64,000 bases of DNA from an uncultured Victivallales bacterium (lineage in GTDB: Bacteria; Verrucomicrobiota; Kiritimatiellia; UBA8416; CAYRKB01): the NCBI GenBank assembly GCA_964424705.1, contig CAYRKB010000003.1:1956-65955 (forward strand), read 5' to 3'. The position numbers were made by a program, and so were the translations under genes. Within the stretch, counting starts at the first letter, position 1. Every line of letters starts with the position of its first letter. This document shows, in pieces, positions 32,076 through 50,700 of this stretch. The notes beneath the pieces were generated by a model, which was given only the letters and a program-made list of their open reading frames with translations, had not been told where the DNA came from and ran no database searches.

Positions 32076-33572
<1,497 letters not shown>

Positions 33573-33593: not shown

Positions 33594-36371
33594 ATGTCCG
33601 CCGAAGACGTCCTGAAATCCTTCCATTCAGACCCTGTCTCTTTGGAAAACATTCTCGCGACGGGCGACGCCGGGTACATGGGACGGGCCGCCGCCTTCAT
33701 CCAGGTTCTCAACCGGCACGGCATCGCTCGCAGCCACATCGATGTGGAAGACTTCGCTGTCTTCCGGCACGAAGGCCTCGCGGGCGCGATCGAGCAGTTC
33801 CTGCGCGACAGCCCGCTCGACGCGCTCCCCCTGGAGCGCATCACGGTAAACCAGTATGTCGCGCCGGACACCTGCCGGGATGACCTGGCGCTGATCCGCC
33901 GGCAGCTGGGCGGGCATCAGGCGCGCATGGCGCATTACGCCACGCGCTTCAACATCGACATCCACGTGCGCCTTTTCGTCCGGGGGCTTGATGCGGAGCA
34001 GGCCGCCGCCATCGCGGGCTTCGCGGGCACCGGGGCGGTCGATTCGATCGGCTTCTTTCTCGACTTCGCCCGGTGCGAGCCGGGCTCCGCGCCCGCGCTG
34101 AGGGCCGCCCTCCGGGAGCTGTGCGCCCACGCTGCCGTCCGCAACCCCAAGGTAAGCTTTGGCAATTTCCCCTTCTGCTTCCTGCCGGCGGAGCATTTCA
34201 AGTGCCTGTACCGCGATGCGCTGGGCGCGCTGAAAGGGCAGATCGGCGCGCAGCGCAGCCTGCTTCGCGAGCTGCGGGCGCGGGAGCAGGCCTGCCACGC
34301 CCCATGCCGGGAATGCCGCTGCCGCACGCCCTGCTACGCCTACACGCAAATGGGAGAGTTTCCGGAATGGGCCCCGCAGGCGGTTCCGCGCCGGGAGCGG
34401 ACGCTGGCCTTTGCGGGCGGGAGCCTGGCGCCAGCGGAGCGTCCGGCCGGCGGCGATATCGTCTGGGCCGCTCCGGCGGCGCAGGGCGACCTGCTGGCTG
34501 CGGTGCTTGAGGGATTTGAAAACCTGCTGATCATCGACGGCTATTTCTATTCAAGATTCCCTTGCACGACGTTCGAGGTGATGCTGGCCCTGGAGGAAGG
34601 CGTCAACGTTTTCGGCGCGGCCAGCATCGGCGCGCTCAGGGCGGCCGAGCTGGACCGCTACGGCATGGTGGGCGTCGGCTACGTGTACGAATACCTCGGG
34701 CAGCGGGCCGTCAAGCCGTACCATGTCGTCGCCCAAACCTACGAAGAAGCGGATCGCCCGCTGACCTTGCCCCTGATCCAGGTTATCTACCTGCTGGAGT
34801 GCGCGCGGCGGGAAGGCGTTGTGGACGAGGCCGCGCAGGAGGCGCTGGGCGCGCTGGCGGAAGAGATTCACTTTACGGTTCTTTCCTTCGAGCACTTCTT
34901 CCGGCGGGCCGGGGCGGAGCCGCGCCTGGTGTCGGCGGCGCAGCGGCTGGAGGCCTACTATCGGGACAGGGGCCGTGCGTATTTCGACATCAAGCGCCGC
35001 GACGCGCTGCTGCTGCTGGACCGCTATCAGGCCATCCTGGCAGGGCGTCCGGGCAACTTCGTCCTGCAGGCGATGGACAAGGCGCGCATCGGATACCTGG
35101 GCGCCATAGGCGCCCGGTATCCCGCGGGACGCGACCTCGCGCTGCCGAAGCAATGGATGGCGCCGGCCGCCGGGCGCGGCCCGCTGCCGCCGATCGCGCG
35201 CGACAGCCGGGATGTGCCGGCGGAGCGGACGTGCGACCGGGCTCTGCGGTTCTTTCATGGCCTCGATGTTGTGGTCGCCGATACCACGCGCTACGACCCG
35301 GGCGGCAGCTACATTCTCAGCACCTTCTTTCTGCCTTTCTACTTTCTCGATTACTACCCGTCGTCCGCCACCGGCAACGGGAGTGCGCTTCCGGAGGCTC
35401 TGGCGTCGGCTTACATGGAGCTTGTTGAACGCCTATCGGCCTGCGCGGTGCACGTCGAGGGGCAGAAGGAAGGCGCGCGCGATGCGCCGCAGTTCCCGCT
35501 TGAGCTGATCCCGCAACTGTACAACTGGGGCGCGGATGCGGCGGAGAAGCAGCAGGCGGTGGAAACCTATGGCCGCGTCCTCGTCACGGACATCAGCGCC
35601 GGGCGGGACGTGCGCATACCTGCGCTGGCCATCCCTTTCAGGTATTCCGGCACGGACGGCTACGCGGCCGGCAATTCCCTGCCGGAAGCCATCCTGTATG
35701 GCGTGTATGAGGTCATCGAGCGGGATACGTGCCAGATTCACCACCTCGACCCCGTATGCCGCAAGGCGCTGCCGCAGTTCCAGGTCGACAAGGCTCGCAT
35801 CACGGACCCGCGCTGCCGCGCTCTGATGGCGCAGGCGGAGGAGAAGGGGTGCGACCTCGCGCTGTTCAGCCTTCCCAATCTCAGCGGGCTGCCCTGCGTG
35901 ATGTGCCACGTCTACGATCGCAATCGCCGCATCCAATGCCACGGCGGCATCGCCGTGCGTGCGGATTTCAACGCCGCGCTCCACGCCGCGCTGCACGAGG
36001 CGTACATGCAGTACATCACGTATTTTGTCGGCACGCGGGACGACTACACCTCCCATGCCCCGACGAAGCGCGCGCGCGTTGCGTATGAGAACGCGCAGCA
36101 GCTGTTTCTGGACGGGCCTGCTGCCTGCCCGGCGCTGCCGGCGCCGGTGCGGTTTGAGTCAGTTGGCGCGGAGCTCGCGCATGTTCTGGCGAAGGTGAAG
36201 GGCTCCGGGGCAGAGCACGTTCTGGTCGCCAACCTGAGTCCGCGCGATGAATACGAAGTCAAGTGCGTCAAGGTCATCATTCCCACCTGCGAGTTGTGGT
36301 TCTGTCCGCAGTACAGGCCCTCGTCCTTTCTCCCGGAGCGCGCGCGAAGAACGCGGGCTGCATTCCAGTAG
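33594..36371 (+). CDS. Tripartite fusion protein: unknown N-terminal domain (~290 aa) + TfuA-like domain + YcaO (cyclodehydratase/thioamidation) domain
   Basis: TfuA signature LLIIDGYFYSRFPCTTFEVMLALEEGVNVFGAASIGALRAAELDRYGMVGVGYVYEY. YcaO signatures SSATGNGSALPEALASAYMELVERLSA and SGTDGYAAGNSLPEAILYGVYEVIERD. Confidence 0.75.
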   Translation: MSAEDVLKSFHSDPVSLENILATGDAGYMGRAAAFIQVLNRHGIARSHIDVEDFAVFRHEGLAGAIEQFLRDSPLDALPLERITVNQYVAPDTCRDDLALIRRQLGGHQARMAHYATRFNIDIHVRLFVRGLDAEQAAAIAGFAGTGAVDSIGFFLDFARCEPGSAPALRAALRELCAHAAVRNPKVSFGNFPFCFLPAEHFKCLYRDALGALKGQIGAQRSLLRELRAREQACHAPCRECRCRTPCYAYTQMGEFPEWAPQAVPRRERTLAFAGGSLAPAERPAGGDIVWAAPAAQGDLLAAVLEGFENLLIIDGYFYSRFPCTTFEVMLALEEGVNVFGAASIGALRAAELDRYGMVGVGYVYEYLGQRAVKPYHVVAQTYEEADRPLTLPLIQVIYLLECARREGVVDEAAQEALGALAEEIHFTVLSFEHFFRRAGAEPRLVSAAQRLEAYYRDRGRAYFDIKRRDALLLLDRYQAILAGRPGNFVLQAMDKARIGYLGAIGARYPAGRDLALPKQWMAPAAGRGPLPPIARDSRDVPAERTCDRALRFFHGLDVVVADTTRYDPGGSYILSTFFLPFYFLDYYPSSATGNGSALPEALASAYMELVERLSACAVHVEGQKEGARDAPQFPLELIPQLYNWGADAAEKQQAVETYGRVLVTDISAGRDVRIPALAIPFRYSGTDGYAAGNSLPEAILYGVYEVIERDTCQIHHLDPVCRKALPQFQVDKARITDPRCRALMAQAEEKGCDLALFSLPNLSGLPCVMCHVYDRNRRIQCHGGIAVRADFNAALHAALHEAYMQYITYFVGTRDDYTSHAPTKRARVAYENAQQLFLDGPAACPALPAPVRFESVGAELAHVLAKVKGSGAEHVLVANLSPRDEYEVKCVKVIIPTCELWFCPQYRPSSFLPERARRTRAAFQ

Positions 36372-38791: not shown

Positions 38792-39659
38792 TCAAATCCC
38801 GACGCGCGAAACAAACTCCGGCACGCCCTGGACTCCCGGCCGCAGCACGAAGAGCGCGCCCGCCGCGGGCCCGTTTTCCGCCCGCCTGTCTCCGCCCGCT
38901 GTGGTGACGTACAGGTCGCGGCAGTCGTCGCCCCCGAACGCGATGCATGAAACGCGGCGTGCGGGGAAGGGGATGCGCAGGATCTCGCCGCCGTCCGGCG
39001 CATAGCGCACAACGCACCCGCCGTCCCAGCGCGCCGACCAGACGCAGCCCTCTGCATCGACGGTGAGCCCGTCTGGCTTGCCTTCCCCCGCGGTTTCAGG
39101 AACTCGTGCGAACACGCGCTGGTTGGAGATGGCGCCCGTTGCGCGGTCATAGTCGAACCGGTAGATCACGAGGCGCCCGGTGTCGGTGTAGTAGAGCCCT
39201 CCGTGATCGGGCGTGAAGCCCAGGCCGTTTGAGGTGCCGATCCCGTCGAGCAGGACGGTCAGCGAAGCGTCGCGGTCGAGGCGATACAGCCGTCCCGGGT
39301 GCGTGGGGGAGGTCATGGTTCCGCAGAACACGCGTCCCTCCGGGTCGGCTATGACGTCGTTGAAACGGTTGTCCGCTTCGTAGGGGATGTCCGCGACGAC
39401 CGGCGTGAGCGTGCCTTTACGCCAGCGCTGCACCGCGCCGCGCGCCATGAACAGCAGCAGGTCCCCGTCGGCTTGCAGGGTGAGCCCGCCGATGGGAATT
39501 CCGAGCTCGAACACTTCGCTCGAGCGCGCCGCCGGGTCGTAGCGCAGGAGTCGCCCGCGGGGGATGTCCACCCAGTAGAGGCGCTTTTCAACCGGATGCC
39601 ACAAAGGCCCTTCGCCGGTAATGCACTGATGGTCGGCAACAACTTCGGGCTGCATCATG
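38792..39659 (-). CDS. SMP-30/gluconolactonase/LRE-family beta-propeller protein
   Basis: EGPLWHP...LYWVDI, then NDVIADPEGRVFCGTM and PDGLTVDAEGCVWSA. Start taken at MMQPEVV (39659). Confidence 0.75.
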
Positions 39660-39765
39660 ATCGCTCGGCATCCTTCCGCATTGGACTTGCCCCGCGCATT
39701 GGTTATCCTTTCCAAACGCCCGAAACAAGTGGAATCGCGCGCCGCGCAAGCGCAGGAGAAAGAGA

Positions 39766-40242
39766 ATGAACGCAGCCCGCCCGATTGCTGTCCTGGCATT
39801 TCTCACGGTTTTGTTCCCGGCCCTGGCGGCGGACAACATGAAGGCGTTCCCGCCCGCCGACGCCGGCATGGTGCGCCATGTCCTGCTGCTTCCGCAGCAG
39901 AACGACGAAGCGGCCTTCAAGGTGGAGCTGATTGTCGGCAAGACGGTGGAGTTGGACGAGGGGAACAGGTATTTCTTTGCCGGCAAGATCGAGGAGGAGA
40001 CGATTGAGGGCTGGGGGTTTCCGCGCTACATGGTGAAGAAGCTGGGGCCGATGGCGGGCACGCTGATGGCGGTCGATCCGGACGCGCCCAAAGTGAGCCG
40101 TTTCATCACGCTGGGCGGCGAGCCGTATCTTATCCGGTACAACAGCCGCCTGCAGATCGTGGTGTATGCGCCCGAGGGCGTTGAAGTGCGTTACAGAGTG
40201 TGGAGCGCCGGGCCGGAAGCGAAGGCCATCGAGAAGGGCTGA
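39766..40242 (+). CDS. eco: Ecotin (periplasmic serine-protease inhibitor)
   Basis: Signal peptide, then AFPPADAGMVRHVLLLPQQNDEAAFKVELIVGKTVELD...EGWGFPRYMV...LIRYNSRLQIVVYAPEGVEVRYRVW, which aligns closely with E. coli ecotin. Confidence 0.85.
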   Translation: MNAARPIAVLAFLTVLFPALAADNMKAFPPADAGMVRHVLLLPQQNDEAAFKVELIVGKTVELDEGNRYFFAGKIEEETIEGWGFPRYMVKKLGPMAGTLMAVDPDAPKVSRFITLGGEPYLIRYNSRLQIVVYAPEGVEVRYRVWSAGPEAKAIEKG

Positions 40243-41397: not shown

Positions 41398-41670
41398 GGG
41401 ACGCGAAGCCTCTCCCCGCTTGCTCTTTACGTCATCTACGATGCTAGAAGACCGAGAGCCGTTTCGCTTTCCCCTCGCGTGCAGGCTGAGCCGCTTCTTC
41501 CTTTTCACGTCCCTTCGGTGCGCCAGTTACGCGCCTTCCGTCACCATCCAAATAAATCGTCCGCCTTAGTCATAAAGCGGGGAAGCCACACGAGCCTTTC
41601 CAAATCCGTCCGCTCCTGCTACACAGGAGTGAAGCAACATGGGCGTAAGCGGCGCGCAGGGGGCGAGGCA

Positions 41671-43125
41671 ATGAAAGACAAAGCAGATGTGGGGCTGATC
41701 GGCCTGGCCGTGATGGGCGAGAACCTGGTGCTGAACATGGCGGGCAAGGGCTTCACCGTGGCGGCGTACAACCGGACGACGGAGAAGGTGGACGCCTTCG
41801 TGGCCGGGCGGGCGAAGGGGATGAACGTCATCGGCTGCCACAGCGTCCGCGAGCTCTGCGCGAGGCTGGAGCGGCCGCGCAAGATCATGATGCTCGTCAA
41901 GGCCGGCAAGGCCGTGGACGAGCTGGTCGATCAGCTGCTGCCGTGTCTCGAGCCCGGCGACATTCTCATCGACGGCGGCAACAGCCATTTTCGGGATACG
42001 ATCCGCCGCGCGCAGTATGTTGAGAGCAAGGGCCTGCTGTATGTCGGCGCTGGCGTTTCGGGCGGCGAAGAAGGCGCGCTGAAGGGGCCGTCCCTGATGC
42101 CGGGCGGCAGCCCGGCGGCCTGGCCGTACGTGAAGAATATCTTCCAGTCCATTTGCGCCAGGGCGCCGGAGGGCGAGCCGTGCTGCGAGTGGATCGGCGA
42201 GAACGGCGCGGGTCACTTCGTGAAGATGGTTCACAACGGCATCGAGTATGGCGACATGCAGCTCATCTGCGAAACGTATGACCTGCTCAAGCGTGGCCTC
42301 GGGCTATCGAACCGGGAGATGCACGACGTGTTCGCCGTGTGGAACCAAGGCGAGCTCGACAGCTATCTGATCGAGATCACCCGCGACATCCTGGGGTACA
42401 GGGACGAGGGCGGCCGGGAGGTCGTCGACCTGATTCTCGACGCCGCCGGCCAGAAGGGAACGGGCAAATGGGCCATCGACGCGGCGCTGGACGAAGGGCA
42501 GCCGCTGACTCTGATCGGCGAGGCCGTGTTTGCGCGCTGCCTGTCCGCGGCGAAGGGGGAGCGCGTCGCGGCGGCGCAGCAGCTCAAGCCCAAGGCCCGC
42601 GTGTTCAAGGGTGACCGGGCGAAATTCATCAACGACCTGCGCGCGGCGCTTTACGCGTCGAAGATTGTCAGTTACGCGCAGGGCTACCAGCTCATGCGCG
42701 GTGCGGCGGCGACGTACAAGTGGAATCTGAACTACGGCGGGATTGCGCTCGTCTGGCGCGGCGGGTGCATCATCCGTTCCGTCTTTCTTGGCGACATCAA
42801 GAAGGCCTTCGCGCGCGAGCCCGCCCTGGTGAACCTGCTGCTCGACAAATTCTTCAAGAAAGCCGTCGCCAGCCGGCAGGTCGCGTGGCGGCGCGTGATC
42901 GTGGCCGCCACGAAGCTGGGCATCCCCGTGCCGTGTCTCGGCAGCGCGCTGACCTACTTCGACGCCTACAGCAGCGCGCGGCTGCCGGCCAACCTGCTCC
43001 AGGCGCAGCGCGACTACTTTGGCGCCCACACCTATGAGCGTGTGGACAAGCCGCGCGGGGAATTCTTCCATACCAACTGGACCGGCCGCGGCGGCACCAC
43101 CACGGCCAACACTTATGCCGTGTAA
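41671..43125 (+). CDS. gnd: 6-phosphogluconate dehydrogenase, decarboxylating
   Basis: GLIGLAVMGENLVLN NADP-binding fold, then GAGHFVKMVHNGIEYGDMQLI, then WRGGCIIRS. Start at MKDKADVG (41671). Confidence 0.9.
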   Translation: MKDKADVGLIGLAVMGENLVLNMAGKGFTVAAYNRTTEKVDAFVAGRAKGMNVIGCHSVRELCARLERPRKIMMLVKAGKAVDELVDQLLPCLEPGDILIDGGNSHFRDTIRRAQYVESKGLLYVGAGVSGGEEGALKGPSLMPGGSPAAWPYVKNIFQSICARAPEGEPCCEWIGENGAGHFVKMVHNGIEYGDMQLICETYDLLKRGLGLSNREMHDVFAVWNQGELDSYLIEITRDILGYRDEGGREVVDLILDAAGQKGTGKWAIDAALDEGQPLTLIGEAVFARCLSAAKGERVAAAQQLKPKARVFKGDRAKFINDLRAALYASKIVSYAQGYQLMRGAAATYKWNLNYGGIALVWRGGCIIRSVFLGDIKKAFAREPALVNLLLDKFFKKAVASRQVAWRRVIVAATKLGIPVPCLGSALTYFDAYSSARLPANLLQAQRDYFGAHTYERVDKPRGEFFHTNWTGRGGTTTANTYAV

Positions 43126-43196: not shown

Positions 43197-43270
43197 TGCC
43201 GGATAGTGTAATGGTAGCACAACAGACTCTGAATCTGTTTGTCTAGGTTCAAATCCTAGTCCGGCAACCA
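43197..43270 (+). tRNA. tRNA-Gln (anticodon CUG)
   Basis: Cloverleaf resolved by hand. Acceptor stem tgccgga/tccggca, D-arm gtgt..gcac, anticodon stem acaga/tctgt with loop ctCTGaa, T-arm ctagg-ttcaaat-cctag, and a 3' CCA. Confidence 0.8.
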
Positions 43271-44882: not shown

Positions 44883-45263
44883 TCAACGGATATGAACCCG
44901 CGATGTGGCCGATCTTCCCGTTAACCAACGGGCGAGCTCGCCCTCCGTGATCTTGGGGTGGGCTCCGGCGTACGGGTGGAAGGCTTGCAGCGAACCAGCG
45001 GCAAGCGTCCTATACAGGGACGGGCGCGACAGACCTGCCCGCTTCGCCGCCGTTGTGATATTCAGTTCGCGCCCTTCAGTGACTGCGTCGTTCCTCGCGT
45101 CACGCCGGAGCCTGTCCACCGCTTCAAGACGCGGATCGTCTTCTGGCAGTGTCGCAATCCGAGTTATGAGTTCCAGCTTGTTCATGTCCATCGAACAGCG
45201 TGATGCCATGAGGTGACGGTCGGCCTGGTCACTGTTGGGAACGTAAGCCCCAGGCGGCGTCAT
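44883..45263 (-). CDS. Small helix-turn-helix DNA-binding protein (Fis/resolvase-type HTH at the centre)
   Basis: ITTAAKRAGLSRPSLYRTL resembles Hin/Fis-type HTH motifs. Start uncertain among several in-frame Met codons. The gene ends 50 bp from island repeat copy A. Confidence 0.5.
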   Translation of the reverse strand: MTPPGAYVPNSDQADRHLMASRCSMDMNKLELITRIATLPEDDPRLEAVDRLRRDARNDAVTEGRELNITTAAKRAGLSRPSLYRTLAAGSLQAFHPYAGAHPKITEGELARWLTGRSATSRVHIR

Positions 45264-45311
45264 GTCAACGCCTGCGCGTCACGCGTTCGGGTGGGCTTCA
45301 ATGTGCGCGGT

Positions 45312-45449
45312 CAGAGGCGTTTGGGAGGCTCAAAGGTATACAGTAAGGTATACAATTTTAGCGCGATGTCTGGAGCCTGTCGGACGCAAAGCACCTCCTT
45401 GCAAGTTCAACGCTACGGGAAATGACGCGGACTTTGCATCCGCTGTAGC
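45312..45449 (+). repeat. 138-bp direct repeat, copy A (left border of accessory island)
   Basis: About 95% identical to 49996-50133. Contains two GTATAC palindromes spaced 6 bp apart (aaaggtatacagtaaggtatacaat). Confidence 0.8.
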
Positions 45450-45562
45450 CCTTTCGCCATCCCGTAGACTGCCGCCGAATCTGACCCGGCAATTGGTGTC
45501 ATCTTCCGCCCTGAATCGGCCTTCCTCTGGTCATCGGCAGGGCATCGTGGTAGCCTCTCCCA

Positions 45563-46744
45563 ATGAGAACCCCGCTCGTTCTTTCCCTCGTCATGGTAGG
45601 TAGCATTCTGGTAGGCACCGTCCATACATCATCAGCGGCGGGAGAGGCTCTGGTTGGCGGCTACTCGAATGCACCGGTCACGAACATGGCGGCGGAGATG
45701 GTCAAGAGCCCCGTGATTCTCAAAGGACTCTTCCGCAACCCCCGCTCGCCAACCAACGGCCTCTCGTCCGCCATGTTGCCTGAGAGAGCCGTCATGCTAA
45801 GCCTCAGATGGCTCCGGGAGATGCAGAATGCCGATGGGTCTTGGAGCACCGACCAAGACCCGAAAGCTGTCGGAACCGCCCTCTCCGTCCTGACACTTCT
45901 CAGCCACGGAGAAACCCCAGCCTCGACAGGATTCGGCGATTCGGTGCGGAAGGGTCTGGAGTTTCTTGTTTCCGCCCAGCAAGAGAATGGCACCTTTGAG
46001 GAAGCAGGTACGCATCCGGCCATCGCCCACGGCATCGTCACTTTGGCCCTCTGTGAAGCCTATGGGATGACAAGGGTCCCAAGGCTGCGTGATGCTGCGG
46101 AGAAGGCATTGGAGGTCATTCTCTCAACCCAGAGAGGAACGGGGCTGTGGGATGCTCAGTATCGGCCCGCTAACGGCGGCGATGACAACCTTGAGGCGTC
46201 TGCGTGGCAAGTCCGAGCGGTGTTCGCAGGCCGCTTGGTGGGGTCGCAAATGAACGGGCTGGCTGAAGCACTGAAGGCCGCCGCCGATGGTTTCGCCGTT
46301 GCCGCTGGAACTCCAGATGCATCGACTGCACCCTTTGCCATTCAGCCGCTCTTGATGCTTCATCGCAACAGGGATGCCGCCTACATTACCGCCCTCGATG
46401 CAATGAAGGGGATGCAGATTGATTGGGCAGAGCCGCAGTGCGACGACCCGATTGTGCATTGGTACTTCACTGGACAGGCTCTCTTCCGGCATGGTGGGGA
46501 GGCGTGTTTTGCGTGGAATCGGTCATCGGTGCCAAACCTCGTTAGCAACCAGACGGTGTCGCAGCGTGAGAAGGGCGGCGGGGTCGGATACTGGGACTCT
46601 CCGGGCAAGGCCGAGAAGTACGGGCGGGTTTACACGACGGCCCTTTGTTCCCTCATGCTTCAGGTCTACAGTATGAGGGCTTACGTGCCTGAGCAGCCCA
46701 AGCAGGATGCAAAGGATGAAGACATCAGAGTTGAAATTAGGTAG
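45563..46744 (+). CDS. Secreted protein: cystatin-like N-terminal module followed by prenyltransferase/squalene-oxidase (QW-type) repeats
   Basis: Signal peptide. The N-terminus ALVGGYSNAPVTN...MLPERAVMLSL parallels the downstream cystatin. Repeats QNADGSWS, QQENGTFEE and TQRGTGLWD are alpha-alpha toroid QW motifs. Confidence 0.6.
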   Translation: MRTPLVLSLVMVGSILVGTVHTSSAAGEALVGGYSNAPVTNMAAEMVKSPVILKGLFRNPRSPTNGLSSAMLPERAVMLSLRWLREMQNADGSWSTDQDPKAVGTALSVLTLLSHGETPASTGFGDSVRKGLEFLVSAQQENGTFEEAGTHPAIAHGIVTLALCEAYGMTRVPRLRDAAEKALEVILSTQRGTGLWDAQYRPANGGDDNLEASAWQVRAVFAGRLVGSQMNGLAEALKAAADGFAVAAGTPDASTAPFAIQPLLMLHRNRDAAYITALDAMKGMQIDWAEPQCDDPIVHWYFTGQALFRHGGEACFAWNRSSVPNLVSNQTVSQREKGGGVGYWDSPGKAEKYGRVYTTALCSLMLQVYSMRAYVPEQPKQDAKDEDIRVEIR

Positions 46745-46771
46745 TCGGTGTTCCGGGGGGTGTCCTTGAGC

Positions 46772-47407
46772 ATGAAACAGAACGTCGCCTCCGTCCTCGT
46801 GCTGACCCTCATCGCCCTGATTGTTGGCACCGCTCAGCCATCACCAGCGGCAGAGACTCTGGTTGGCGGCTACTCCAAGGTATCTGTCACGAACGAACAG
46901 GTCATCGCCGCAGCCCAGTTCGCCGTCAAGACCTTGGCAGCCATGCCGGAGAGGGCGGTTGTTGTCTCCCTTGTCGAGATTAAGGAAGCCGAGCAGCAGG
47001 TCGTGGCGGGAATGAACTACCGGCTGCGGCTCAGGGTGCTGGGGGATGACTTGGTCAGGCAAATGATTGTGGTGGTCTGGTGGCAGGCGTGGAGAAAGCC
47101 AGACCCTTATCGGCTGACATCGTGGGCGTGGAAGCAGGGCGTGCAAATGACGGTGCGCCCAGTCCGGTTCGACCCCAAGGGAGAGCCTCGCAAGGTGTTT
47201 ATTGGCGAGAACACGAACGCCATCAGCACGGTTGAGGAACTGCAAGCACGCATCACGGCTCTGCCAGCGGGAACCGAGCTGTCTTGGAACAGCGGTTGTT
47301 ACCTCTACGAGTTCGTTCCGGTGGGCACGAACCGCATTCCGATGAAGGACTTCGTGAACATGTGCGAGAAGGCTGGGGTGACATTCTCGTATTCCTGCGG
47401 GTTCTGA
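46772..47407 (+). CDS. Cystatin-family cysteine-protease inhibitor-like secreted protein with C-terminal extension
   Basis: After the signal peptide: LVGGYSKVSVTNEQVIAAAQFAVKTL...EQQVVAGMNYRLRLRV. This gives the canonical cystatin G, FAV and QxVxG motifs. A Trp-rich segment follows, then a ~110-aa C-terminal domain. Confidence 0.7.
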   Translation: MKQNVASVLVLTLIALIVGTAQPSPAAETLVGGYSKVSVTNEQVIAAAQFAVKTLAAMPERAVVVSLVEIKEAEQQVVAGMNYRLRLRVLGDDLVRQMIVVVWWQAWRKPDPYRLTSWAWKQGVQMTVRPVRFDPKGEPRKVFIGENTNAISTVEELQARITALPAGTELSWNSGCYLYEFVPVGTNRIPMKDFVNMCEKAGVTFSYSCGF

Positions 47408-47623: not shown

Positions 47624-48628
47624 ATGAGAGAAATCGTCCAGTCTCTAGCCCGGCATATTGAGGCGGTGGCCGGCCGCGTGCCCAAACTGCAGCCGGTGCC
47701 TGAGGCAATTCATAAACTGCCGGCCTATTTCGGCGGCCTGTATGAGGCGTGGCAAGCCGACTTGTTTGAGCATCGATACCTGTTCCTTGTCAGCAAGGGA
47801 AAGGAGCACTCTACTCCCGCCGAGGTATCGGGGCACTATCGTGTGGCGATGCGGGAAATCCATGACCGGGTAGCTTTTGTCTTCCTGAATCTTGAGGCTT
47901 TCGCACGCCAGCGCCTTGTTCAATACCGCGTGCCGTTCGTCGTTCCGGGCCGGCAAGTGTATCTGCCACAGACCTTGATCGATCTGCGGGAAGGCGCCTC
48001 GGCGCGAACTGGGCAAAGCTCGGAGGAAATCACTTACCTATCGGGCGCGGCCCAGGCCATCCTCCTTTGTTTACTCCAGAAACCGAAGGCGCCTGAATTG
48101 CTCTCACTTCGAGAGTGGTCAGCAGTGCTCGGCTACTCAGCCATGACTGCCACGCGCGCCGCGAGTGAACTAGCCGCGACTCAACTTTGCAGAATCGAAC
48201 CAAGAGGCAGGAAGACGCTCCTGAATTTCGACGACAAGCGTCGTGAGCTGTGGGAGAAGGCCCTGCCTTTTCTTCGCACTCCGGTGCGGGGTCGGTCGTA
48301 TGTGCGGCTGAAGACAAAGGGAGAGTTGCCGTGGTTGCAGGCGGGTCTTCCTGCATTGTCTCGCCATACCATGCTCGCGGACGACGGGCGCCCCGTCTTC
48401 GCCATAGGCACATCGGAATACACCAAGCTTGTGACCGAAAGGCGGGTTCAGGCAATTCCCTTCTGGGAGGAGGATGCTGTGTCGGTTGAGCGGTGGCGAT
48501 ATCGTCCGGGCGTTCTGTCCGGCGGACCAACCGTTGATCGCCTTTCCCTGTATTTGTCCCTATATACCGAACGAGACGAACGGGTGCAGGCAGCACTCAA
48601 AGAGCTGGTGGAGGGTATTCCATGGTGA
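47624..48628 (+). CDS. abiEi: AbiEi-like type IV toxin-antitoxin antitoxin (HTH transcriptional regulator)
   Basis: About 334 aa. It immediately precedes, and overlaps by 7 nt, a nucleotidyltransferase-toxin gene. Size and organisation are typical of AbiEi. Confidence 0.6.
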   Translation: MREIVQSLARHIEAVAGRVPKLQPVPEAIHKLPAYFGGLYEAWQADLFEHRYLFLVSKGKEHSTPAEVSGHYRVAMREIHDRVAFVFLNLEAFARQRLVQYRVPFVVPGRQVYLPQTLIDLREGASARTGQSSEEITYLSGAAQAILLCLLQKPKAPELLSLREWSAVLGYSAMTATRAASELAATQLCRIEPRGRKTLLNFDDKRRELWEKALPFLRTPVRGRSYVRLKTKGELPWLQAGLPALSRHTMLADDGRPVFAIGTSEYTKLVTERRVQAIPFWEEDAVSVERWRYRPGVLSGGPTVDRLSLYLSLYTERDERVQAALKELVEGIPW

Positions 48629-49401
48629 AAGGGTTACAGCGGTTTGTTGACCATTTCAAAGGGTTCGCGGACTCATATGTCCTTATCGGCGGGGCGGCCT
48701 GCGACATCTGGCTGACCGACCGTGGGCTTACATTCCGTGCCACCAAGGACATTGATCTTGTTCTTGTCGTAGAAGCGTTGCGGCCCGCTTTCTTCACATG
48801 CTTCTGGGAATTCATCAGGGGCGGCCGGTACAAGAGTCACCAACAAAGCGCCGTCCGTCCCGTCTTCTACCGTTTCCAGGATCCGATGACGGCCGAGTAT
48901 CCCTACATGATTGAACTCCTGTCCAGAACGGGGCTGGAGTTGCCTGCGGATGCGCGCATCACACCGATTCCCGCCGGCGATGACATTTCCAGTCTCTCGG
49001 CCATCCTGCTGGATGACACCTACTATCGGTTCGTCGTTCAGAGCCGAACGATGGTGAACGGCGTTCCCATTCTCCCGGCCCAATGCCTCATCCCGCTCAA
49101 GGCGCGTGCATGGCTCGACCTTACCGTGCGCAAGGAGCGCGGTGACGTGACTATCAAGAGCGACGACATAAAGAAGCACCGCTACGACGTGTTTCGGCTC
49201 TACCTTTCGATTGCACCGGCCGACCGGTTTGAGCTGCCTCCAAGCATCCTGGCTGATCTTGGCAGCTTCCTCGACAGGCTCCCCCGTGATTCTGCGGACT
49301 GGTCCTCAATACGGGAGGCCGTCGGTAGGTCGGCCCTGCCCGAAACGGCAACAGTTCTTACCCAGATCCGCGCGATCTTCGGACTTCCTGGGAAGGGGTA
49401 A
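48622..49401 (+). CDS. abiEii: AbiEii/AbiGii-family nucleotidyltransferase toxin
   Basis: N-terminal minimal NTase motif YVLIGGAACDIW...RATKDIDLVLVV (hG[GS]...DhD), with a C-terminal helical domain. 259 aa. Confidence 0.7.
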   Translation: MVKGLQRFVDHFKGFADSYVLIGGAACDIWLTDRGLTFRATKDIDLVLVVEALRPAFFTCFWEFIRGGRYKSHQQSAVRPVFYRFQDPMTAEYPYMIELLSRTGLELPADARITPIPAGDDISSLSAILLDDTYYRFVVQSRTMVNGVPILPAQCLIPLKARAWLDLTVRKERGDVTIKSDDIKKHRYDVFRLYLSIAPADRFELPPSILADLGSFLDRLPRDSADWSSIREAVGRSALPETATVLTQIRAIFGLPGKG

Positions 49402-49995
49402 TGCGCGCCGTAAAGTCGGCCCATCGAGCAAAAGATCAATTTCGGGAGGGTGTCGCTTCCAGGACGATCTGCCGGAACCGTATAAGAATGTCGGAGTGCT
49501 TCTCTTGGAGGTATTCCTCAAACAAGGCCCTCAATGGCAGCGGCCTGTTCTGCAGGCGGATTCCTTGCCGATCGAGCAGGTGTATCAGGCTCCAGTTGAG
49601 GGCATGCTGACCGGGTTCGGGATGACGGACCCCTGGGCTTGGCACGCGCGGTGACAGGGCGTTGCCGGAGGCTCTCCCAAAACCCAAAAGTATACAATTC
49701 TGTCCTGGAAGAGTATACAATGACATAATTCCTTAGGAAAGACGCGCGCGCGACCGGCCATTGCAACAGTGGTGATGTAGAAAGGTCACGCGGCAAGCTA
49801 GACTCTTCGGTTGCAACACACGAGGAGCGACATGGCTTTCAAGCGCGTGACCGAGGAAGAACGTAGACTGGTGTCCTATTGGCGTTCCAAGCCGTTCACC
49901 CCTAGCAGCCAACAGCTTACACAAGCGATTGAAGAGCCTGCGCCTGCTCGTTTGCACCCCGTTTGTCGCAACCTGACAATCGACTGCACCCCTGT

Positions 49996-50133
49996 CAGAG
50001 GCGTTTTGGAGGCTCAAAGGTATACGGTAAGGTACACAATGTTAGCGCGATGTCTGGAGCCTGTCGGACGCAAAGCACCTCCCTGCAAGTTCAACGCTAC
50101 GGGAAATGACGCGGACTTTGCATCCGCCGTAGT
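49996..50133 (+). repeat. 138-bp direct repeat, copy B (right border of accessory island)
   Basis: Matches 45312-45449 in the same orientation, including the GTATAC-containing segment. Confidence 0.8.
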
Positions 50134-50135
50134 CC

Positions 50136-50339
50136 TCACTGCCCTTTCTTCTGATCGCCAGCGGTAGTTTCCCTGTACATCAAAGGCCGCAGCAGAAAAG
50201 GCGCGACAACCATCAGCGCCACCGTGCACACCGCCCGCCCCGTGACTCCATTGCCCAGCCAAAGATATGTTCCTTCACATATCCCGTACACAATTACAGC
50301 CGACATCAAAAGCCAGAGAATCACTTTCACCGCACGCAT
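50136..50339 (-). CDS. Small two-TM membrane protein, hypothetical
   Basis: 67-aa ORF with two hydrophobic helices (VILWLLMSAVIVYGI; VCTVALMVVAPFLL). Abuts repeat copy B. Weak evidence. Confidence 0.25.
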   Translation of the reverse strand: MRAVKVILWLLMSAVIVYGICEGTYLWLGNGVTGRAVCTVALMVVAPFLLRPLMYRETTAGDQKKGQ

Positions 50340-50700
50340 AAAGCTCCCGCCTCCTCACCCATTTATGGGTTACCAGTTACATACTGAATAAGTTTCTTCC
50401 CGATATCAGTATTGTCCTTGAGCCCGCCCAGCTCTGCAGATCCAGGCCCGAACGCGAACAGAGGTTGCAGCGGTGTGTTGACCATTTCAAAGGGTTCGCG
50501 GACTCATATGTCCTTACCCGTGATCCCACGGTCAATGAATTCCTTGATGATCTCAATGCCATTGCCGCTGGCAAACGTGCGTACTTGGTCCTGCTGGATC
50601 TCAACGCTATTCTCCTGTCTGTCTTGTGCGTAATCCGTCACTGATACGTGCCGGACCAAAGGCGTTCCAGAAACACGGCCAGCCGCAGTGGGTGATCGAT

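Follow-up and report, generated by a model that had tools for sequence, protein, structure and literature searches.

Do two adjacent genes of an environmental verrucomicrobial genome encode secreted inhibitors of cysteine proteases, and if so, against whose proteases would they act? The question is raised by two open reading frames (ORFs), here termed ORF1 (393 aa) and ORF2 (46772-47407, plus strand, 211 aa), which lie on the same strand 27 nt apart, at the coordinates assigned by an earlier note on this DNA, in a 64,000-nt stretch of contig CAYRKB010000003.1 from an uncultured Victivallales bacterium (Verrucomicrobiota; assembly GCA_964424705.1); this whole stretch is called the window below. 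The earlier note had described both products as secreted proteins sharing a cystatin N-terminal module, the second as a canonical cystatin and the first as a paralogue that runs on into toroid repeats. By the analysis presented here, ORF2 begins with an exported cystatin domain, predicted as such by profile and by fold, to which a second domain of an unannotated family is joined, and ORF1 is a toroid protein that has in common with ORF2 little more than its leader. The two genes likely form an operon because of their 27-nt spacing and the lack of a convincing intervening terminator or promoter (a scan between them found none above shuffle expectation). The reading that we favour, with some reserve, is that this operon of a two-domain cystatin and a leader-sharing toroid, seated on an islet next to a tRNA-Gln gene, shields the cell envelope from exogenous cysteine proteases.

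The case starts with ORF2. Its start was taken as the ATG at 46772, which is used by the gene callers in three public assemblies and in all homologues; an alternative GTG lies at 46748. As read from the sequence, both products open with a Sec signal peptide of the usual kind, closed by an AXA-type site. Behind it, ORF2 has the cystatin motifs in the order that had first drawn attention to it, LVGG at residues 30-33, FAV at 50-52 and QQVVAG.NY.L at 75-85. The cystatin profile PF00031 matches significantly over residues 32-90 (31.4 bits, gathering threshold (GA) 22.2, E 2.3e-7). In a phmmer search of all Protein Data Bank (PDB) sequences, ORF2 matched almost exclusively cystatins at E-values from 1.2e-4 to 1e-3, among them mialostatin (E 1.2e-4), amacstatin, OmC2 and sialostatin L2, and the weakest match was a cystatin-derived scaffold; mialostatin aligns in register, LVGG with LVGG and QIVAG with QVVAG. 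The AlphaFold2 (AF2) model, based on 116 homologues, reaches a predicted local distance difference test score (pLDDT) of 87-98 across residues 31-120, which are predicted to form a helix (42-57) on four antiparallel strands (65-77, 81-91, 94-104 and 113-120), and QVVAG (76-80) is predicted at the tip of the first hairpin, between strands 65-77 and 81-91. Compared with the PDB by Foldseek, the model retrieved cystatins at ranks 1-29 throughout, including chicken cystatin, cystatin C, cystatin E/M and the tarocystatin-papain complex, with target-relative template modelling (TM) scores of 0.59-0.83 over the cystatin matches, one 199-residue phytocystatin entry excepted; the prediction thus returned the cystatin fold and not an unrelated one. 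Throughout the 116 homologues G32, G33, Q76-V-V-A-G80 and W103 vary little or not at all; they make up the protease-binding wedge. The second hairpin is rich in Trp: strand 4 closes with the invariant W103, the 105-112 loop holds W104 and W107 or has them close by, and W107 is absent in relatives with a short loop. Judged by profile, by its matches to solved cystatins and by predicted fold, the N-terminal domain of ORF2 is a genuine exported cystatin.

A canonical family-2 cystatin, as the earlier note had it, ORF2 is not. Like the eukaryotic members of that family (1cew, 3gax and the tick inhibitors 3l0r, 6ztk and 3lh4) it is secreted and carries LVGG and Q-x-V-A-G in register, and the predicted fold is the same (TM 0.6-0.7) at only 17-23% identity. 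Unlike them, it lacks both conserved disulfides as well as the PW dipeptide and has a divergent second hairpin with W103, W104 and W107; to this come a partial Pfam match and the additional C-terminal domain. The family-2 disulfides are missing because all three Cys of ORF2 sit in that appended domain; the close relatives likewise have no Cys in the cystatin domain. Group-2 phytocystatins such as tarocystatin (3ima) resemble ORF2 in combining a cystatin domain (target-relative TM 0.74-0.75 for the cystatin part) with a C-terminal extension, but their extension is cystatin-like, whereas that of ORF2 is an unrelated three-Cys alpha/beta domain without a known fold match. A close precedent is found in the bacterial cystatins of Kordis and Turk (2009; MEROPS I25 / PF00031; PMC2784779), which have a signal peptide, the conserved N-terminal Gly and the QxVxG hairpin as ORF2 does, and which, like the ORF2 family, show a patchy distribution resembling that left by horizontal gene transfer; their proposed role is an “emergency” one, the inhibition of cysteine proteases of foreign origin. 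Among the matches of ORF2 are relatives from Geobacter (loci L010 and L013). What sets ORF2 apart from the 2009 set is its occurrence in Verrucomicrobiota, the fused C-terminal domain, the likely co-transcription with a toroid and the tRNA-Gln islet.

The C-terminal domain of ORF2 (residues ~123-211) is joined to the cystatin domain via a linker that AF2 predicts with low confidence, and it has no match in Pfam or NCBIfam. HMMER, run exhaustively against 1.84 billion representatives, gave 44 relatives at E<=1e-3, nearly all of them exported proteins or lipoproteins that stand alone at 85-200 aa, with the common C-terminal motif LP.G(S/T).L.W.SGC..Y...P......F..FC...G(V/I).F.Y..G(F/Y/W). Modelled alone by AF2, the domain is predicted confidently, with a pLDDT of 87.6 and a predicted TM score (pTM) of 0.78, and its comparison with PDB folds yielded nothing significant (best E 0.04; query-normalised TM <=0.42). 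It belongs to an unannotated small alpha/beta family of exported proteins. The domain also occurs without the cystatin, behind a different N-terminal region, in the protein P0010, and the close cystatins P0007, P0009, P0012 and P0014 bear other C-terminal domains; the majority of relatives consist of a cystatin alone, ~120 aa long. The toroid P0126 (L086 6001-7446) and the cystatin fusion P0007 (L093 944-1924) share the C-terminal module EFVYTVGTD(S/T)NGVPIQ(P/Q)VEW, and therefore C-terminal domains are exchanged between toroid and cystatin genes as leaders are. In L086 an MNT/HEPN toxin-antitoxin pair precedes the toroid gene. Elsewhere the cystatin domain is found fused to a penicillin-binding protein (PBP)-transpeptidase/beta-lactamase-like domain in a protein of 359 aa (L009 4923-6002), as the C-terminus of a 1556-aa Planctomycetaceae protein (L080 645-5315) and as the N-terminus of a 705-aa Akkermansiaceae protein (L017 247-2364).

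Such shuffling could also serve a quite different role, in which the cystatin fold is a binding or immunity module against papain-fold toxins (amidase/peptidase effectors) delivered into the periplasm by competitors, and the toroid and the interchangeable C-terminal domains do the targeting. A mobile and variable cassette in which cystatin and toroid genes trade their C-terminal domains would suit this role, as would the cystatin-free P0010 and those fusions in which a cystatin domain is joined to a PBP-transpeptidase-like domain or sits in a giant protein; moreover, genes of toxin-antitoxin type flank cassettes, and a permuted papain-like amidase (Peptidase_C92) is encoded 2.7 kb from the pair in locus L005. 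That amidase gene, however, lies on the opposite strand and in one locus only, no secretion-system or toxin gene is adjacent to the pair, and the inhibitory motifs are exactly those required for C1 peptidases. The seven islet proteins also gave no significant match to known defence families (best E 0.04), and we consider an immunity role quite improbable.

What, then, is shared between ORF1 and ORF2? BLASTP aligns ORF1 5-89 with ORF2 9-75 at 38% identity with an 18-residue gap (E 3e-7), and none of 20,000 shuffles matched the score of the N-terminal similarity, whether the whole N-terminus or its mature part only was taken. The resemblance seen by the earlier note is thus beyond chance, but it covers the signal peptide and ~11-17 mature residues (ORF1 1-41) and not a cystatin structural module. 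The mature parts of the leaders read AAGEALVGGYSNAPVTN in ORF1 and AAETLVGGYSKVSVTN in ORF2, and at the DNA level 45630-45685 and 46839-46894 are 84% identical across 56 nt. Identical codons are used in 11 of the 12 identical leader residues (P=1.4e-4 given the codon usage of the window). The ORF1 leader is closer to cystatin leaders of other genomes than to those of its own orthologues: it scores 125 against that of the cystatin P0002 (MRTPLVLSFLMMGSILFGIVQPSSAAETLVGGYS) and 100 against that of P0003, compared with 59-67 against other toroid leaders; in L003, the toroid and cystatin genes share LVVGTVQSSAAA in their leaders. All this fits a toroid gene that gained the 5′ end of a cystatin gene, namely its signal peptide and ~11-17 codons, with repeated gene conversion keeping the segment similar afterwards.

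Carried further, the view of the earlier note makes ORF1 a partial cystatin paralogue, whose LVGG N-terminus would aid protease inhibition beside ORF2. LVGGYS..VTN is indeed intact in the ORF1 of the window, yet the orthologous toroids read TVCVVS, ASVAAS or PLAVAS where ORF1 has LVGGYS, from which it follows that selection does not maintain LVGG in toroids; the codon identity likewise indicates recent gene conversion and not selection. ORF1 has no cystatin helix, no QxVxG hairpin and no match to PF00031 or PF16845 at E<=1, and its residues behind the leader (MVKSPV.LKG..., E.AV..SLRWL) are toroid-family motifs that are found also in long-form toroids with a membrane anchor. The second piece of resemblance adduced by the earlier note, MLPERAVMLSL in ORF1 against AMPERAVVVSL in ORF2, beats shuffles of the hand-picked segments but reaches an estimated E of only ~0.03 when taken alone. 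Read codon by codon, it shares the codon in only 2 of 8 identical residues other than Met, Ser being encoded by AGC on one side and by TCC on the other. In the toroid family, E.AV...LRWL(K/R) is the first helix, kept in long-form members without a cystatin-like start, and in the cystatin relatives (A)MPER...(I/V)(S/T)LVEI is the strand preceding QVVAG; between both similar pieces of ORF1 stands MVKSPV.LKG, again a toroid-family motif. We read the PERAV..SL resemblance as a coincidence, each stretch being native to its own family. The partial-cystatin reading of ORF1 is largely refuted, and a role of its LVGG in inhibition is scarcely credible.

The remainder of ORF1 bears out the QW-type alpha/alpha toroid that had been recognised in it. 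SQHop_cyclase_C (PF13243) matches just above threshold (26.7 bits, GA 26.1), as does Pec_lyase (24.3 bits, GA 22); the profile of the ORF1 family finds squalene-hopene cyclase in the PDB at E 3.7e-16, and QW motifs (Q...G.W/F) stand at residues 88, 139 and 190. Two catalytic or reactive relatives were considered and rejected. ORF1 is not a class II terpene cyclase nor an alpha-2-macroglobulin (A2M) thioester domain (TED), because both DxDD and CxEQ are missing; it is in addition exported and of a single domain, TED_complement scores 14.4 bits (GA 22), and the family profile reaches only E ~0.1 against A2M. From its sequence, ORF1 is best described as an exported non-catalytic QW alpha/alpha-toroid of a family specific to the Planctomycetes-Verrucomicrobia-Chlamydiae (PVC) group: of its 405 homologues, the named ones come from Lentisphaerae, Verrucomicrobia and Kiritimatiellia. 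PVC envelope proteins labelled “terpene cyclase/mutase family” or “prenyltransferase/squalene oxidase repeat” are 30-40% identical to ORF1 over most of its length and have in common with it the QW motifs, ALCEAYG and an acidic C-terminal tail. Typical PVC toroid members are of ~545 aa and have a cytoplasmic N-terminus, a transmembrane helix and a Glu/Pro-rich linker; in ORF1 the cleavable cystatin-derived leader replaces all of these. In a metagenome-assembled genome (MAG) of Lentisphaerae (L085 4223-9598; GCA_021413965.1), two long-form toroid genes stand in tandem directly after TPR-MotA_ExbB-ExbD-ExbD; their topology is TonB/TolA-like, with the toroid as distal domain. The same MotA_ExbB-ExbD gene context is occupied by the von Willebrand factor A (vWA) force transducers of PVC bacteria described in 2025, in a paper where toroids are not mentioned (PMC12204202).

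How widespread are such cystatins and such pairs? The view of the earlier note that bacterial cystatins are rare is true to the 2009 survey, the only one met with in the literature searched, which recorded them from no genera but Vibrio, Photobacterium, Polaribacter and Geobacter (G. lovleyi) and in which Verrucomicrobia, Lentisphaerae, Planctomycetes and Acidobacteria were scored negative (PMC2784779). It no longer holds. A word-indexed search now returns 308 protein clusters of bacterial cystatin relatives at E<=1e-3, some of them labelled “cystatin domain-containing protein” by NCBI, and a scan of 185,579 species genomes with a narrow query of two short motifs confirmed the gene in at least 111 of them. 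Neighbours and taxa were counted in the best 80 cystatin loci of these at least 111; they comprise 24 loci of Verrucomicrobiota, 6 of Lentisphaerae and 4 of Planctomycetota (together 34 loci in PVC genomes), 13 of Acidobacteriota, 24 of Pseudomonadota, 4 of Desulfuromonadales/delta-proteobacteria and 5 others. The taxon names need caution, as the labels of L014, L016, L024 and L074 (Akkermansia muciniphila) and of L039 and L075 (Klebsiella) look implausible for MAGs from lakes or co-assemblies that serve as GTDB species representatives. The pairing with a toroid, whose distribution the earlier note had proposed to check, does recur, but in three lineages only and in both gene orders: in the window, in L003/L004, where the toroid is 73% and the cystatin 40% identical to those of the window and 13 nt separate the two genes, and in L005, where the cystatin gene stands first and the toroid is 68% identical. 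Scanning metagenome contigs for further toroid-cystatin pairs gave three toroid loci only, none with a cystatin.

Table 1. Features of the window discussed in the text (positions in the window)
Feature	Position	Strand	Remarks
ORF1	45563..46744	+	393 aa; leader residues 1-41 (45563-45685), QW-repeat toroid ~75-375
Leader segment within ORF1	45630..45685	+	encodes SSAAGEALVGGYSNAPVTN; homologous to 46839-46894 in ORF2
ORF2 signal peptide	46772..46849	+	residues 1-26; n-h-c regions and AXA-type site; cleavage probably between SPA and AE
ORF2 cystatin domain	46853..47134	+	residues ~28-121; by profile, PDB sequence match and AF2/Foldseek
ORF2 C-terminal domain	47129..47404	+	residues ~123-211; three Cys (176, 198, 209); ends ...SYSCGF
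143-nt direct repeat, left copy	45310..45452	+	5′ of ORF1; 95% identity to right copy
143-nt direct repeat, right copy	49994..50136	+	
Two overlapping genes	47624..49401	+	334 aa and 259 aa; within repeat-bounded block
Excisionase-like helix-turn-helix (HTH) protein	44883..45263	-	126 aa; all matches weak or below curated thresholds
tRNA-Gln(CTG)	43197..43270	+	ARAGORN; Rfam tRNA 71.6 bits; left boundary of lower-GC islet
Ecotin	39766..40242	+	with signal peptide; in higher-GC core part of window

The genomic setting of the pair is given in Table 1. Past 44 kb the guanine-plus-cytosine (GC) content drops from ~0.64 to ~0.58, and the pair is carried on a lower-GC islet of ~43.4-50.2 kb together with hypothetical genes, the excisionase-like HTH gene and the two overlapping genes, which are faintly AbiEii-like. 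The HTH product scores 20.4 bits against Pfam HTH_17 (GA 27), 19.9 bits against TIGR01764 (cut-off 28.8) and weakly against the PHROG 66 excisionase (E 7.8e-4). The 143-nt direct repeats enclose a 4.7-kb block made up of the toroid, the cystatin fusion and the two downstream genes. They have no Rfam match (the Rfam scan of the islet gave the tRNA only), and their first 64 nt are 73% conserved 5′ of the toroid gene in L003/L004; the left copy is probably the upstream or promoter region of the cassette. Downstream of the right copy, at 50463-50516, the 5′ end of the 259-aa gene (48632-48685) recurs over 54 nt at 96% identity. The two repeats, in the same order and orientation, suggest a degraded second copy in tandem or the tandem accretion of related cassettes. 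For the 334/259-aa pair, an AbiE type IV toxin-antitoxin was considered and rejected, with AbiEii matching the 259-aa protein at only 13.2 bits in Pfam (GA 22.5, E 0.083) and 10.9 bits in PADLOC (E 0.05); the 334-aa protein has no match in Pfam, PADLOC or NCBIfam searches, and no AbiEi partner is indicated.

The same tRNA-Gln(CTG) adjoins toroid/cystatin genes in L005 (8065-8138) and in L091 (42-115), where it lies 217 nt upstream of the toroid P0122, and ~80 nt on its 5′ side are conserved between the window and L005, which suggests an integration hotspot common to three lineages. In L003 an HTH_17 gene and a tyrosine integrase flank the toroid-cystatin pair, and in L092 they flank the cystatin fusion P0009. 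These integrases beside relatives, the tRNA adjacency, the GC drop, the 143-nt repeats and the excisionase-like gene all point to an island. A phage origin was rejected, as no cystatin relatives were found in IMG/VR and the sole trace is the weak excisionase PHROG match. Outside the islet, the 6-phosphogluconate dehydrogenase (6PGD) of the window is 76-81% identical to its named matches, all from Verrucomicrobiae or Verrucomicrobiota MAGs, which places the window in Verrucomicrobiota; its longest ORF (41479-43125, 548 aa) is probably over-extended, since all homologues and the public call have 484 aa, which puts the start near 41671. The window further encodes a 925-aa TfuA-YcaO fusion (33594-36371) preceded by an FHA-MoxR (AAA_3) ATPase gene (32076-33572), which may be a locus for thioamidation or for a ribosomally synthesised and post-translationally modified peptide.

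Taken together, the favoured reading would run as follows. The ORF1/ORF2 operon would belong to the accessory genes of a Verrucomicrobiota genome, borne by a small islet on the 3′ side of tRNA-Gln(CTG). ORF2 would be exported via Sec as a two-domain protein with a disulfide-free cystatin at its N-terminus, which, as other cystatins do, would inhibit papain-like (C1) cysteine peptidases tightly and reversibly by wedging itself into their active-site cleft, and its C-terminal domain would probably tether the inhibitor or add a second binding activity. Most likely the pair would protect the cell envelope from exogenous cysteine proteases, for instance the digestive cathepsins of protist grazers. 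The defence against host or predator proteases proposed in the earlier note is a plausible hypothesis, and grazers are a likelier source of such proteases than a host because the relatives come from environmental metagenome assemblies.

Several observations weigh against this reading. The PF00031 match spans profile positions 1-58 of 92, that is the first two thirds, and SQAPI, an aspartic-protease inhibitor of the same fold, scores 25.5 bits against ORF2, though below its cut-off of 31. The PW dipeptide is absent from the ORF2 cystatin domain, which also has no Cys and so no disulfide. No biochemical characterisation of any bacterial cystatin was found in the literature searched. Of the 80 cystatin loci, 77 have no toroid partner, and clustering of their neighbours showed nothing that recurs save families of a generic kind, hybrid kinases and AMP-binding enzymes for example. 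The island status of the window's islet is circumstantial, because the window holds no integrase remnant and no homologues of the L003/L092 HTH and integrase genes, and the 3′ 25-mer of the tRNA-Gln has no second copy in it, so there is no tRNA-derived attachment (att) repeat. Finally, tblastn with a papain query turned up no papain-like peptidase gene, neither in the window nor among 84 related loci, and these loci thus point to no target.

The last point bears also on the alternative that the cystatin domain controls the bacterium's own exported papain-like peptidases. Bacteria have many C1-family peptidases (PMC2784779), the visible sequence is only 64 kb of the genome, and the strong conservation of the wedge residues across hundreds of free-living bacteria would accord with such an endogenous role; yet no C1 peptidase gene lies near any of the 84 loci and no neighbour recurs, the location on an accessory island and the patchy distribution speak against it, and chagasins have been argued to fill this role (PMC2784779). 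We regard it as unlikely.

The earlier note had further combined the cystatin with the nearby ecotin into a defence against both Cys and Ser proteases. The ecotin is real (PF03974 148.8 bits, GA 22.2; NF002987 143.3 bits, under the equivalog cut-off of 162), but it belongs to the core genome ~5.3 kb from the pair, with a radical-SAM gene, the 6PGD gene and the tRNA-Gln in between and housekeeping genes (dehydroquinase, radical-SAM, 6PGD) as its neighbours. It is an independent core gene and not part of the cassette or of a combined inhibitor locus. Like ORF2, ecotin is a Sec-exported bacterial inhibitor and is thought to shield the envelope from exogenous proteases; unlike ORF2, it has an unrelated fold and target class, and it shows no co-location or co-inheritance with the cassette. 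It would do for serine proteases what the pair may do for cysteine proteases, encoded independently. The ecotin gene overlaps by 4 nt with the end of an upstream 156-aa ORF (39299-39769), which has no family match and a lower GC at third codon positions (0.63 versus 0.84). In contrast to the ecotin of E. coli, that of the window lacks a Cys in the neighbourhood of its putative reactive loop (GPMAGTLMAVDP).

A bolder version of the favoured reading, to which we would give little credence at present, makes the toroid-cystatin pair a mobile modular cassette for envelope protection in PVC bacteria, in which gene conversion keeps the leader common to two unrelated exported proteins and the C-terminal targeting domains are exchanged; the cystatin would act against papain-fold enzymes arriving in the periplasm, be they grazer cathepsins or papain-fold toxins from competitors, and the soluble toroid would be a decoy or adaptor derived from an undescribed family of TonB-like, ExbBD-coupled transducers.

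For the family itself, the ORF2 cystatin is a new member of a large, uncharacterised group, and its fusion, its toroid partner and the shared leader are a modest variant that would not surprise a specialist. The attractive half-cystatin reading of its neighbour is corrected to that of a leader-sharing toroid. The cystatin family is widespread in environmental Verrucomicrobiota, Lentisphaerae, Planctomycetota, Acidobacteriota and Proteobacteria with its wedge residues kept, and bacterial cystatins are recombined with other exported modules on mobile islets. ORF2, with and without its C-terminal domain, offers a handle on whether free-living bacteria deploy cystatins against the digestive proteases of their grazers.

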